Positions 2,836 to 63,684 of a stretch of 64,000 nt of DNA are shown in pieces; position 1 is the first letter of the stretch; every line of letters starts with the position of its first letter. Location: contig CAXHJY010000079.1 in assembly GCA_964016885.1 (NCBI GenBank), positions 159,096 through 223,095 on the forward strand. The letters are read 5' to 3'. The stretch comes from Eledone cirrhosa (Eukaryota). Made by a program: the position numbers and the translations under genes. The notes beneath the pieces were generated by a model. It saw only the letters and a list, made by a program, of their open reading frames with translations. It was not told the DNA's origin and ran no database searches.

Positions 2836-3029
2836 AAAAGAGTCAGGACCCCGACGGCTGAGCTCCGGCCGTTTCGACAGTTAGATCAGTTCAGATCTAG
2901 ATGTCGAAACGGCCGGAGCTCAGCCGTCGGGGTCCTGACTCTTTTCCTATTACCCACTCTACTACCCAAAGTATTGAGTACTTTGGTGCGTTATGGTCCA
3001 CCTGGTTCCTTACCACACTTTCTTTGTTA
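2836..3029 (+). mobile_element. PLE terminal fragment family B with fold-back inversion and HHR 3' half
   Basis: ~45 bp perfect inverted repeat (GAAAAGAGTCAGGACCCCGACGGCTGAGCTCCGGCCGTTTCGACA and its complement); GAAACGGC..GCCGTC-GGGG as in the Naiad HHR at 52019; flanked by (TA)n. Confidence 0.8.
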
Positions 3030-3049
3030 TATATATATATATGTTTTGT

Positions 3050-3278
3050 TTGTCGTTGTTACAGCTCACACCTATGCACGTTTAGCTGGTCTCCTCCAAG
3101 GTATATCTCGTTAGAGGTGTCTTGGGTGATTTAATGATAGGGACCCCAGTCTTATGTTCTCATTTCTACAGATGAGTAAACTGGAGCAACGTGAAATAAA
3201 GTGTCTTGCTCAAGGAAACAACACATCACCCGGTCCGAGAATTGAAGCCCAATGCTCTAACCACCAAGCCATGCGCCT
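3050..3278 (-). mobile_element. SINE family D, alternative tail type
   Basis: Reverse complement of the family D head and core; tail shared with 9730-9975. Confidence 0.8.
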
Positions 3279-5797
3279 TACACACACACACACACACACA
3301 CACACACACACACACACACACACATATATAATTGCATAGATATAGTGAAGCATTCTGAGATAGGTAATAAATAACAGAGTTTTGTGAAAGGTGGTACCAT
3401 GTATATAGAAATGTCTAGATCATTATTTCCTTCTCCCCCCCTCCCTCTGGAAGAAATCAACAATATCCTAGCCTGGAATAAGATGCCAGGTTTAAATATC
3501 AGAATGACGCCTCTATCATTCAATTAGCAGAAAATATATAAAAACAAGTTTCTTAATTCAAATGCTTATAGTATATTTAAAGGCGGACAGATTGTTGTGA
3601 CAATATGCAGTATTAGAGTAAAGACATTAATTTGTAATGTGGTACAATCGTAATGCAGTTTTGTCTCCTGAATATGGCTTCATGTGGAAGAGTATGTTAA
3701 GAGCTAAGGCTCCATTCAGATATAGATGTGTGTATTTATTATATAAGATTATTATGCTTACCTTAAATGCTTAAGATTATGTTGTTAAATAAAAACAACA
3801 TTCCATTTAGTAAAACGTCCAATGATCTTCAGGTGTGACAAATACAGGAGGCAGGAAGGAAGAAAAGAAAAAAAAAGAAGAGAAACAATGAAGCAGAGAA
3901 TAAAACCGTGTCAAAGGTGAAACATACAAAATATAGGAATTTTCAATAACTCGGAAGAATAAATAGACATAGGTAGAAAGATAAAAGAATGATGAATGCA
4001 GGCTTATACACACACACACATATATATATATATGGATGGATGGATGTATACACACATTTTTGAACACTCAATGATATATATAGGGATATCCACTTTCCTA
4101 CAAAAACAGATTTTACTTTTAATCACATCAACATTGCATTGAGTTCTACAATGGCTATACATCCTATCTCAATTAGATAGAACACCAATGTGTGTGTGTG
4201 TGTGTGTGTGTGTGTGTGTGTGTGTGTGTGTATATATATATATATATATATGAATTAACAAAAGAAGAGTGGAGGAACTGCGTGTGTCACATCATATAAT
4301 AATTGTTTTTACTTTTGGCACAAGGCCAGCAATTATTCCAGTACATTACTGGTACTTTATATCACAGATGATATTATAATATTGACAACATGACATGCAC
4401 AATACTGCCCGGTCATTGGTCATCAAAATGGACACACACAGACTTGACCTCCACCGATTTCAGTGCTGGTCAATCCCGGACCACAATGTCTAACCAGTTA
4501 ACCAAACATTGACATTAAACGACCAAGACGAAACAAGACTAACGTAACGTGTGTAGATTGAAATGTAGGACATCTATATATGTCCAAAATATTACATAAA
4601 CGACCTGCGAAACACGGAGACCAAGACACACACACATAGAGAATGTGACACTCAGAGAGGAAATATTTGATTGCTTTTAACCATCACAAGATGGTTTGGA
4701 AGACATACACACCTTTACGCTCCTAACAGTGATGTTAGCTTTGTTATGGTCTGATGCACATATCCTGGCAGCTTTGCACTGACAAACACACGTCCTCTCA
4801 AAATACATAAGGATTATTTCTCTTTCAAAACCACTCTCATATCGGAGATACCTTTTGACCTGAACATTCTAAAAAATGGCTAACTAAACAGATACATACT
4901 TTTTCCTTCTCAACGATGTATGTGAGGGTTTGTATCTTTTTTCTGTTTGTGTCTTATGTTTCTCTATTCTATCTTCAGTCATTAAATTACGGATTTTATT
5001 CCGGATCAGTAGGACATACTCCTTTAGGAAAGCCCCCTGTACTGATAGGAACTGTATCGTTGGTAAGATAAGCCCACAGATAAACTGTAAAACTAGAAAT
5101 GTAGTTATCAGCATGCTAAACTAGAACACGACGGCTCAATAGATAACAGAAATAAGGATCCTATTCACACACAGAACTGGCGCAACATTCAGACAAATTA
5201 TGGAGGCCACACACATAACAGAAGATAGTCATAGCCTGAATAGAACACATGAGTGGAATAGTAACAGTCCGCAACTTAATGACTGGAGAGAGAGAGAGAG
5301 AGAGAGAGAGAGAAAAGACTCAAACGAACCCCCTCAAAACAGAAAACTTGACAAACAGAAAACGCTCGTAGGCGCAGGCGCACACAAATGCGCAGACACG
5401 AAACACACACACGTGCCGCAAAACAAAAACAAGACGGAGTAGAAGTTTAAGATCAGGAAAAAGAAGAGGCACAACAGAGATAATCTTTTAAGAGGTTACA
5501 AAACGTGTGACGAAAGAAACTTTGGCAAACAATTGAATGATTCTTTCTACTTTTAGCACAAGGCCAGGAATTACCGCAGTGTATTACTGGTACTTTATTT
5601 ATCGACCCTGTAAGGATGAAAGGCAAAGTTAAGAAATAAATGAATAATGAACGATAAAGTGAATATAATATGATGCAAGCGTTTCTTTCTATTGGCAACA
5701 TGACAATCCTAATATATATATATATATATATATATATATATATATATATATATGCTGTGTGTGTATATATATATATATATATATATATATATATATA

Positions 5798-5873
5798 TAG
5801 GGTGTCCCCAAAAATGTATACACACTTCAACAGCATTCTAATCAGAGTATGTATATATTTTTGGGGAACACTA
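5798..5873. mobile_element. Tiny Tc1/mariner-like MITE
   Basis: Imperfect TIRs AGGGTGTCCCCAAAAATGTATAC...GTATATATTTTTGGGGAACACT in TA context. Confidence 0.65.
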
Positions 5874-5963
5874 TATATGTGTCCTAAAACGATGATGATG
5901 ATCATAACACACACACACACACACATATATATATATATATATATATATATATACACATATATA

Positions 5964-6054
5964 CAGGGTGTCCCCCCCAAAATGTATACACACTTTGATT
6001 ATATGTACAGGCAATATTTACTTGAATGGTATATACATTTTTCGGGACACCCTG
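5964..6054. mobile_element. Tiny Tc1/mariner-like MITE
   Basis: TIRs CAGGGTGTCCC..AAAATGTATAC / ATACATTTTTCGGGACACCCTG with TA on both sides. Confidence 0.75.
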
Positions 6055-6572
6055 TATATATGTATATATACATACATGTGAGCATGGGAACAGTCCTAAA
6101 AACGATGATCGTGATCATGATAATATATATATACGTGTGTATATATATATATATCGTATATATGTATATATATGTATGTAGGACCATACAGTTTATTGAT
6201 ATAAATATTGAAGCTGCTATACGTAGGTAGCATATAGTGATGACATCTCAGGAGGCAGTTACTACAAGGTTTTACCTAAAGCAAACTGACTGCTGTTTGA
6301 CAGCTGATGACAGCAAACTTGGCTATCTACATCTCTCTCTCTTCTCTCTACCCCCCTCTCTCTATCTATATATATATATAGATAGATATATCTAATGTGT
6401 ATGTACTTACACACACACATACACATATATATATATATATATATATATATATATATATATATATATATTAATATATATATGTGTACGAATGGGTACATAC
6501 ATATATAATGTGTGTGTGTATATATGTTTGTGTGTACACACACACACACACACATATATATATATATATATA

Positions 6573-61858: not shown

Positions 61859-62872
61859 TGTATGTATGTATGTATGTATGTATGTATGTATGTATGTATG
61901 TATGTATGTATGTATGTATGTATGTGTATGTATGCATATATGTGCATACCATTTTTTTTACAAAATTCCCAACACTATATATATATATATATAGTGTGTG
62001 TAATGTGAAGTTACTGTAAATATATATGTATATATATCATCATATATATATCATCATATATATACATATATATCATCATATATATACATATATATCATCA
62101 TATATATATATATATCATCATATATATATATATATTTCATCATATATATATATATATCATCATATATATATATATATATATCATCATATATATATATATA
62201 TCATCATATATATATATATATATATATCATCATATATATATATATCATCATATATATATATATAATGATATATATACATATATATATATGATGATATATA
62301 TGTATATATATATGATGATATATATATATATATATATCATCATATATATATATATATATATATCATCATATATATATATATATATATCATCATATATATA
62401 CATATATATCATCATATATATACATATATATCATTATATATATACATATATATCATATATATATATATATATTATCATATATATACATATATATCATCAT
62501 ATATATATACATATATAACATCATATATATACATATATATCATCATATATATATATGTATATATATCATCATATATATACATATATATCATCATATATAT
62601 ATCCCTGCTAACTTGAGTTGAATGTATCGTCAGTACCTAGTCGTAGCTACTGTCCCCCCAGTCAGAGTAATGAGCCACATCTCATTTGCATAAGCTCCCG
62701 TACTCAACCGAATACACTGGGTACATTTTATCATAGCACCGGCACTAAGAAGGTTGTCATGTCTTTGACTCAGCTGAAGAGTCTTATCAATGATGTCCTA
62801 CCCCTCATCAACCACTTCACAAAGTGCACTGGGTGCATTTATTAAAGGTTGTCATATATATCTTTATTTTAT

Positions 62873-63073
62873 ATAGAAATGACTTCTACAGATATAGAAC
62901 TGTTTCATTCGTATGGAATCATTCAGGAATTTCCTGATGATTTCATACAAGTGAAACAGTTCTAGTCCTGTAGAAGACATTTCTATACAAAATAAAATTA
63001 CTTATACTCTACCATTGTATTGAGTAACTTTTTAAACTGTGTTCACCTTCCGATCTTCATCAGGAATCCACCC
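62873..63073 (+). mobile_element. Family A fragment: inverted HHR pair plus tail; plus-strand HHR (62931-62975) has an intact core
   Basis: TTC-CTGATGA-TTTCATACAAGT-GAAA-CAG-TTCTAGTC-CTG-TA-GAA; tail TACTC..GTATTGAGTA. Confidence 0.8.
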
Positions 63074-63119
63074 ATATATATAAATACACACACACACTAT
63101 ATCTCTATATATATATATA

Positions 63120-63303
63120 GAGGCACATGGCTTAGTGGTTCAATTCTCGGACTGGGTGATGTATTGTTTCCTTGAGCAAGACACTTTATTTCAGCTGTAG
63201 AAATGAGATGATAGGGACTGGGGTCCCTATCATTCCACTGCAAAGTGGTTGTGGACCCCTTGCAAGCAGGGAAAAACAGATGTAAAATGATGATGATGAT
63301 GAT
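63120..63303 (+). mobile_element. SINE family D, internally deleted
   Basis: Head, core and GCAAGCAGGGAAAA..GTAAAATGATGAT tail. Confidence 0.8.
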
Positions 63304-63383
63304 ATATATATATAATATATATATATATAAAATAATAAGTGTAAGTCAAACATGTTAAAGTTGGCTTTGTTTATTCCAATTCG

Positions 63384-63436
63384 CTGTTATACATATTTCA
63401 GTGACAGCCATTATTGGCTGTGACCTCATCAGGCAA
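63384..63436 (-). ncRNA. Minimal hammerhead ribozyme (fifth family), weak stem I
   Basis: Minus: CTGATGA-GGTCACAGCCA-ATAA-TGGCTGTCACT-GAAA-T-ATGT-A-TA; lies in insertion ~63330-63660 with a GTTGAGTGC tail on plus. Confidence 0.7.
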
Positions 63437-63684
63437 TAAGAATTAAGGCAGAAAAAACAGGAAAACATGATGTTGTAATGGGTTCTACTCTGTTAATTCA
63501 TCAATATGTCCAGCTCCTGGATGTGTTGTTAGTCCTCAAAGGAATTGGAATCATATCATTACATTACTCTAGAGTGAACAAACCAACCTGCACACTTTGT
63601 TGAGTGCTCCTACCCGCATACTGAGGTGTTGGTAAACAACCAACACATACTCAAAATTGATATATATATATATATATATATAAA

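Follow-up and report, generated by a model that had tools for sequence, protein, structure and literature searches.

A 64,000-nt stretch of the Eledone cirrhosa genome (contig CAXHJY010000079.1, positions 159,096 to 223,095 of the forward strand), referred to here as the window, contains short insertions that bear hammerhead ribozymes or parts of them and mostly lie in (TA)n tracts, and the question it raises is what process makes such pieces. The initial annotation of the window listed 15 of them and attributed them to a Penelope-type retrotransposition system, with Naiad-like drivers and products that were either extreme truncations or retrozyme-like nonautonomous elements. We found all 15 to be real, each at or within about 15 bp of where it had been placed, and they fell into five families by homology (A, B, H, I, and J). 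Most were either head-to-head fold-backs or an inverted tail joined to a sense arm, an architecture that the annotation did not describe; nor did it describe the tail itself, a segment found in all families that is bounded by two end sites and carries a TTGAGT(A/G)CT motif. These insertions, which we call stubs, were not randomly truncated, having one 5′ starting point per family with an initiator-like sequence. We consider it probable that most of them are run-off complementary DNAs (cDNAs) of Hydra-type Penelope-like elements (PLEs), ending at the predicted transcription start of the element.

All five families are almost certainly the 3′ ends, that is, the pseudo-long terminal repeats (pseudo-LTRs), of protein-coding PLEs that bear Hydra-clade motifs and are of Hydra-type origin. 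The Penelope-type origin and the association with autonomous open reading frames (ORFs) proposed at the outset were borne out, each family being contiguous with a Hydra-type ORF elsewhere in the genome. The family B ORF had 64 scored matches in the genome, every one of them 99 to 100% identical, and many lay in tandem at about 3.54 kb; the family B 3′ end consists, in order, of the complete hammerhead, end site 1, an 80-nt tail, and end site 2, which in the tandem units is followed by the 5′ untranslated region (5′UTR) and then the ATG. Family A was linked to an unbroken ORF (locus L272) encoding a protein 49% identical to that of B, family H to Hydra-type ORFs at two loci (L351 and L379), and family I to one at a single locus (L072). 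For family J, 14 of 30 loci had a same-strand ORF C terminus upstream, and no linked ORF was found at six long J loci; ORFs near J at L315, L317, and L400 were rejected as links, being separate neighboring insertions or a sister family. Related ORF pieces occurred in 21 stretches of a systematic sample of the 3.0-Gb genome, consisting of 80 evenly spaced 10-kb stretches (800 kb). Where compared, the proteins of the families were 39 to 57% identical to one another, those of H, I, and J having been translated as fragments only. The tail motif, located approximately 20 to 45 nt past end site 1 (e.g., at 2971-2982 and 45293-45304), was shared despite this level of protein identity and is a candidate protein-recognition element.

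A parent of family B, missed by the initial annotation, lies in the window itself. This near-full-length element (52007..55359, minus strand) starts at codon 13 and ends at reverse transcriptase (RT) start site 1 in (TA)n, with no tail. Its 5′-truncated ORF (53242..55359, minus strand), which is 99.7% identical to an intact 717-aa copy, encodes an RT (RWR, DKT, YRDD), a CxCx5C linker, and, at the C terminus, a GIY-YIG endonuclease (YIG, CxxC, CxH). Downstream is a complete type-I hammerhead (52020..52112, minus strand) with a U3-A8 core swap (UUGAGAA) and a predicted cut after 52024, whose loop II contains a predicted core promoter (52064..52093, minus strand) with TATTTAAA at −29, an initiator-like TTT/AGTCC (the slash marking the boundary), and a putative +1 at 52064. 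The domain order, with YRDD preceding YIG, was the same in the B and A proteins, and the best named homolog carries PF01541; a Pfam scan of the window ORF itself returned no families. RWR at position 37 and DKT were present in both B and A, and DKT also in H and in a J-related ORF; the RWK given for the clade is thus RWR here, and the DKG-to-DKT change is present. The CxCx5C linker, CxxC, and CxH were found in B and in A (in A as CNCLNKEAC, CDLC, and CMH), and the YIG core had no conserved cysteine pair in a five-sequence alignment that included no reference bearing CCHH, a motif of other endonuclease-positive PLEs that the Hydra clade lacks. The units were longer than the description of Hydra elements as generally shorter than 3 kb, which is descriptive rather than diagnostic, at 3.54 kb for B and 4.08 kb for H; the family A hammerheads at L272 were 5.97 kb apart, with nested inserts possible there. 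The ORFs were Hydra sized, and the 3′UTRs were longer.

The presence of type-I hammerheads in the pseudo-LTRs was confirmed with a type-I hammerhead descriptor, compared with shuffled sequence, together with the ORF-linked 3′ ends. The window gave six matches versus 0 to 1 in 20 shuffles, at 21034 (A), 30546 (I), 45040 and 45178 (both H), 52107 (the long B copy), and 60708, the last of which is probably due to chance; the 800-kb sample gave 47 matches versus 4, 2, and 5 in three shuffles. The canonical motif thus lies near the 3′ end of A, B, H, and I elements in the window, and of J-type elements in the sample. The claim that the inserts carry hammerhead folds or their 3′ halves held in this respect, but the motif was intact in only 3 of the 15 (21027, 30444, and 44941), was complete with a damaged core in another 3 (47606, 62873, and 63330), and was only partial in 9. 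The motifs have the conserved core and three helices of type-I hammerheads, and self-cleavage is predicted. Helix variants that retain pairing were seen by eye across subfamilies. A hammerhead three-way junction was the minimum-energy fold in family B only, and the monomer folding z-scores of five motifs were not significant, with energies no better than those of shuffles. Rfam reported no hammerhead in the two subregions scanned, nor among the 150 of 565 whole-window matches listed, all of these being microRNA models on hairpins and TA repeats. Scaled up to 3.0 Gb, the sample would correspond very approximately to 160,000 intact motifs and to 450,000 arms belonging to the five families. In addition, about a dozen further hammerhead types were seen in the sample, some downstream of Hydra-type ORFs (e.g., at L095, L105, and L119) with a similar TGAGTGCT tail motif.

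The proposed (TA)n bias was upheld: in the systematic sample, (TA)n adjoined 41 of the 55 tail ends, against a rate of 9.9% at random positions. For young B copies, each of the 29 ends scored abutted (TA)n. By family, the sampled fractions were 8/15 (A), 17/18 (B), 8/8 (H), 5/6 (I), and 3/8 (J), the last obtained with a loose tail pattern and retained in the total. A figure of 9/30 for young A copies was an undercount (the site 1 boundary was set too early, and most misses had TA 11 nt later) and was not used. The window has exceptions: the insert at 21027 has the end of a short interspersed element (SINE) to its left, and (CT)n/(CA)n is found at 25281 and at 47890. TA adjacency was not unique to Hydra elements. 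A SINE family that we take to be tRNA-like from its A/B-box-like starts (1488-1662, 3133-3246, 9804-9969, 20864-21015, 25594-25704, and 63138-63255) had its 5′ end at (TA)n in 13 of 22 sampled copies and may share the Hydra target or machinery. An abundant short repeat family that served as a SINE control (4296-4360, 5536-5632, 6582-6748, 16794-16972, 18921-19037, 34438-34560, 49476-49582, and 63691-63866) ended at TA in 9 of 91 cases and showed no TA bias. The window is not exceptional, and insert density follows TA content: it has 21 arms in 64 kb versus 119 in the 800-kb sample (approximately 2.2-fold), in line with a TA content of 13.7% versus 5.8% (2.4-fold).

The 5′ side of the stubs was equally constrained. 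Among young B arms, 27 of 30 reached no more than 4 nt past the boundary, which we number +1; of 56 young A arms, 22 were long, and 28 of the remaining 34 started between −1 and +7. Fold-back spacing agreed, with 30 of 32 B gaps measuring at most 41 nt and 17 of 21 A gaps at most 51 nt, and I and J showed the same fixed boundary by eye. Whole-genome exact counts for B fell from 10,495 just inside +1 to 2,456 spanning it and 1,482 about 150 nt further up, and those for H fell from 2,264 to 306 across it. In the window, 9 of the 15 stubs have an arm starting at −1 to +4, and none passes upstream, although the family A reference used in this alignment has few bases upstream of +1 and cannot show upstream extension. 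The description of the stubs as extreme truncations is thus close to the evidence, except that the truncation point is fixed in each family and not random. The boundary sequences are CCC/AGATT (A), TTT/AGTCC (B), TCC/ACTAT (H), TTC/ATATG (I), and CCC/ATATG (J), and four of the five reference copies matched the initiator consensus (general patterns that match 1.5 to 3.6% of background positions); the H reference has a private change there, and most long H copies match. CCAAT was present within 110 nt in four of the five families, and TATA at −30 in A and −29 in B. The fixed boundary is likely the transcription start. In family B it falls within loop II of the hammerhead, which is why nothing but the 3′ half of the ribozyme is left in short B copies. 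Summed DNA sequencing depth fell approximately 21-fold and 35-fold across the B +1 in two runs, but we did not count this as evidence, summed depth being no measure of copy number and one run possibly being the assembled sample. DNA contigs of three runs aligned to a family H insert revealed no empty site.

Two further observations bear on how the ends arise. Of 30 full-ORF B loci, 22 reached +1 on a second pass, and 21 of these continued through it; +1 therefore behaves like the end of a template, not like a block in sequence or structure, which would be expected to halt the RT each time. In addition, among the fold-backs, 10 of 16 in B and 9 of 13 in A have a tail-less arm whose 5′ reach exceeds that of the tail arm; the former thus holds 5′ sequence that the latter lacks, which indicates two primings. 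The arms of the fold-backs are independent copies and not copies of each other.

We directly observed the ORF links, the TA bias, two fixed 3′ ends, one fixed 5′ boundary, and independent arms, and we propose the following route from the parent element to the stub. RNA polymerase II would start at +1 in the upstream pseudo-LTR, giving an mRNA with the order +1, hammerhead region, tail, 5′UTR, and ORF. With the RT-endonuclease bound to RNA lying downstream of the tail, each strand of (TA)n would be nicked, and synthesis would be primed from both RT start sites. Because a unit-length mRNA would offer a downstream binding region to its 5′-proximal tail alone, cDNAs primed at that tail would run off at +1. 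The RNA 5′ end would be just 60 to 320 nt away for the two cDNAs, and their joining by microhomology would give single stubs, tail-plus-stub pieces, and head-to-head hairpins. Copies that are long or in tandem would originate on templates lacking a 5′ end at +1, such as read-through transcripts of tandem arrays or hammerhead-cut, circularized RNA, or else through strand transfer. The stubs are probably dead-end products. Some of these steps have precedents. Two-site priming with both strands cut and extended has been demonstrated in vitro for the anole element PAc, in which the tail is the interval between the RT start sites and RNA downstream of these sites is required (PMC11167929), and the transcription start sites of Penelope and Chlamys lie in the pseudo-LTR (PMC2377424, PMC8557442).

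Several points weigh against this proposal. Downstream protein binding is known for a Poseidon element and not for Hydra. The A and B arm samples came from the first 23 to 44 Mb of one chromosome and favor young copies, and in the count of second passes through +1, 13 cases extend beyond the end of the locus, and several of the 30 full-ORF B loci are units of the same tandem arrays. The steps in the exact counts are confounded by subfamily variation in the upstream patterns, most strongly for H, of which 11 sampled arms aligned only from +13 to +122; older H subfamilies show no boundary against this reference. In the window, 6 of the 15 stubs begin at or beyond +8. TATA is missing from around −30 in H, I, and J, and the initiator match is inflated, +1 having been chosen, within 1 to 2 nt, after the pile-up was seen. 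Lastly, A and B have an AG at the boundary that might act as a splice acceptor, and the Drosophila virilis intron ends at helix I (PMC4209133).

This last point leads to the alternative that survives best, though we judge it unlikely, in which the parents are the same Hydra elements but the boundary reflects a pause of the RT, a site of RNA processing, or a splice acceptor instead of the transcription start, the stubs being ordinary 5′ truncations with a hot spot. Heavy 5′ truncation is known in PLEs (PMC8557442), in family A the 5′ edge of hammerhead stem I and +1 are at the same position, and the fold-back joints use microhomology, which could sharpen a pile-up. A pause is difficult to reconcile with the second passes that continue through +1 and with the lack of a stable hairpin just upstream of +1 in all five families, and the boundary occupies a different position relative to the ribozyme in each family. 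A splice acceptor is likewise opposed by H, I, and J, which lack AG at the boundary, and by the joints of short A copies, which share no upstream exon.

Less likely still is that the stubs are self-propagating nonautonomous elements, SINE- or retrozyme-like, with an internal promoter at +1 and copied in trans by the Hydra protein. Nonautonomous PLE derivatives are known (PMC8557442; bioRxiv 10.64898/2026.07.22.740005), and the fixed length of the stubs, their retention of the sequence from the initiator onward, and their very high copy number (27,663 exact matches of one A 27-mer) would fit such a life cycle, as would an A subfamily with no long copy among its best-match loci and the existence of one head-to-tail A junction (L013). 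Yet every family has ORF-linked long copies, young short B copies exactly match long ones, and the stubs are missing TATA and CCAAT as well as the region on the downstream side of the tail. Moreover, short B copies, without the 5′ half of the core, cannot form the ribozyme, and the joints differ between copies, the commonest H joint having the tail on either arm. Retrozyme-type head-to-tail arrays were rare, with 7 same-strand pairs less than 600 nt apart versus 35 fold-backs in 864 kb and none among the 15 window inserts. The retrozyme option of the initial annotation is thus not supported for any of the five families. Similarity-ranked matches had also pointed to family A as a fixed-length nonautonomous element, which was ruled out by an unbiased pattern sample that contained long copies and an intact ORF.

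For the fold-backs alone, a single cDNA or antisense template might snap back and copy itself, as proposed for rotifer Penelopes (PMC3846280, Discussion). Palindromic joints are common, and a few A copies resemble stem-I snap-back products (L143 and L165), but in the 19 of 29 fold-backs noted above each arm holds sequence missing from the other (as in the insert at 44941), so neither could have templated the other, and we regard self-priming as improbable. The Naiad-like drivers first suggested, with an N-terminal endonuclease, are scarcely credible even though a (TA)n preference and a presence in Octopus are recorded for Naiads (PMC8557442, File S1), as all linked ORFs have the RT first and GIY-YIG last, with DKT and CxCx5C, and Naiads have no canonical hammerheads and are described as remnants in cephalopods (PMC8557442); no genome search for Naiads was made.

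Run-off at +1 recalls the replication of LTR retroelements, whose minus-strand strong-stop DNA is primed near the RNA 5′ end and runs off at +1 as a short product of fixed length. That DNA is tRNA primed and not integrated alone, whereas the product here would be target primed on both strands and integrated directly. It is conceivable, although we hold this only tentatively, that PLEs make a retrovirus-like strong-stop cDNA that is transferred to the hammerhead-cut 3′ end of the mRNA. Both target-primed strands would start at the 5′-proximal tail and run off the capped mRNA 5′ end; the 3′ hammerhead cut would leave both mRNA ends with the same short terminal repeat (from +1 as far as the cut, 41 nt in B); and the run-off cDNA would transfer onto this repeat, continue, and regenerate the pseudo-LTR, the hundreds of thousands of stubs being failed transfers. 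In family B, the promoter would lie inside the ribozyme, and only the 3′ copy would be able to cut. If true, this would give the ribozyme a job, and the genome would be a base-precise map of the family promoters and of the intermediate.

The individual window stubs take several forms. Single pieces are the family A stubs at 21027..21091 (plus strand), which extends from +1 to site 1 with an intact hammerhead, 27184..27239 (minus), from +10 to site 1, and 34848..34980 (plus), from +10 with a tail, and the family H stub at 2724..2796 (plus), which holds only the 3′ half of the hammerhead (from +105) and ends at site 1. Inverted tails joined to sense arms are found at 25172..25281 (family A, plus; arm from +8), 35187..35341 (family B, plus; arm from +2, hammerhead 3′ half only), and 63325..63659 (family J, minus; arm +1 to +233, core complete, stem I closing pair mutated), the last being the insert first placed at 63330. 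The family I insert at 30444..30643 (plus) has part of an inverted tail and a sense arm from +1, and its hammerhead is intact with a palindromic helix III (AUGCGCAU). In the family B insert at 23804..23955 (minus), a tail arm is joined to an opposite arm starting near +1, with the hammerhead 3′ half only. The fold-backs comprise one of family B at 2836..3027 (plus), with an inverted tail-less arm, a sense arm from +1 with a tail, and the 3′ half of the hammerhead; one of family I at 25293..25533 (plus), joined in loop II (+82), with 3′ halves and the tail on the right; and one of family H at 44941..45364 (plus), with an inverted tail-less arm (+1 to +188), a tail arm (+39 to +275), and an intact hammerhead in each. 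Three more are of family A: 26100..26251 (minus; arms from +22 and +33, without the 5′ half of the core), an old copy at 47606..47890 (minus; both arms from +3, damaged cores), and 62867..63075 (plus; arms starting at +3 and +4, tail at the right end, core complete but for a mismatch in stem II).

Other features accompany these inserts. A palindrome centered on a (TA)12 tract (27259-27337) lies directly beside the family A stub at 27184, and a 100-bp repeat in a TA tract (55560-55660) upstream of the long B copy, with look-alikes beside other stubs (L025 and L378), may be the tail of another family. A TA-flanked repeat is present in three copies (1850-2223, 30801-30986, and 61484-61855), two of them 97% identical over 372 bp. 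Long interspersed element (LINE) RT fragments, which we take from their motifs to be RTE-like, occur at 960-1255, 8500-8770, and 12530-12825, with long open frames at L311 and L314. Elsewhere, one family A stub recurs at many places with the same flanks (L231, L235 to L237, L243, L251, L116, and L299, at the central match; 7 of the first 30 pattern-match loci and others besides) and sits inside a larger amplified repeat, and a 388-aa open frame between two family A stubs (L301:3420-4583, minus strand) resembles alpha-tubulin.

Hydra elements, their hammerheads, their TA preference, and their inverted truncated ends, including those of an octopus family, are already published. The value of the present observations is mechanistic: regeneration of the pseudo-LTR and the head-to-head repeats are called unresolved in PMC2377424, PMC3846280, and PMC8557442. 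Families that are very young and high in copy number (64 or more B ORFs at 99 to 100% identity) yield base-level predictions: where the RNA would begin in each of the five families, that priming occurs twice and independently, and that the position of the promoter disables the ribozyme at the 5′ end. Reading the stubs as aborted copies would make the copying mechanism of the element testable. We found no statement of start-site run-off of PLE cDNAs in the literature searched, a body that lay apart from most subscription papers, including the 2005-2006 and 2017 PLE reviews. For annotation, the stubs should not be called miniature inverted-repeat transposable elements, SINEs, microRNA hairpins, or retrozymes.

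Among known systems, the closest is the Hydra clade of PLEs with a C-terminal endonuclease, which includes Hydra-1_Obim of Octopus bimaculoides and Penelope-13_HM (PMC8557442). It has the same domain order and the same RW(K/R), DKT, CxCx5C, CxxC, and CxH motifs, the same canonical hammerheads, many of which contain CTGATGAT...TGAA like those of family A (File S2 of that paper), and the same (TA)n preference, pseudo-LTRs, inverted 5′-truncated copies, and optional tail. Besides their longer units, the families described here differ in having tails of 75 to 95 nt versus 30 to 40 nt (PMC8557442), in that the copies of many number in the tens of thousands, and in that at least one is very young. 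A fixed 5′ stub boundary was not found described in the accessible account of the Hydra clade (PMC8557442). Naiads, in contrast, have an N-terminal GIY-YIG, a CxC domain between the endonuclease and the RT, DKA, and no canonical hammerhead (PMC8557442), whereas the present families have a C-terminal endonuclease, DKT, and canonical motifs. The Poseidon element PAc of Anolis carolinensis likewise has two internal RT start sites bounding a tail, cuts and extends both strands, and uses an AT-rich target, but it belongs to another clade, and its start sites lie inside the ORF, unlike those of family B, which lie approximately 95 and 175 nt before the ATG; the accessible text does not address genomic cDNA ends (PMC11167929).

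The ribozymes and their arrangement also have counterparts. TATA and initiator motifs have been noted in pseudo-LTRs, with solo pseudo-LTRs ascribed to deletion or recombination and inversions to self-priming (PMC3846280). The minimal type-I hammerheads of metazoan PLEs include the same solo motifs, read as truncated PLEs, the same U3-A8 swap and palindromic helix III, and the same opposite-strand pairs 100 to 700 bp apart (PMC4209133). By comparison, the A and B helices III are 4 bp and could fold as monomers, and the predicted RNA start of B in loop II would leave the ribozyme copy at the mRNA 5′ end incomplete. Metazoan non-LTR retrozymes likewise have type-I hammerheads, a PLE connection, and very high copy numbers, but they are noncoding tandem arrays of 150- to 450-bp units with a ribozyme in each (PMC7229834; bioRxiv 10.64898/2026.07.22.740005), with no part in an autonomous element and expressed as circular and linear monomer RNAs, whereas the stubs of E. 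cirrhosa are dispersed, occur singly or head-to-head, and are contiguous with ORFs at other places in the genome.

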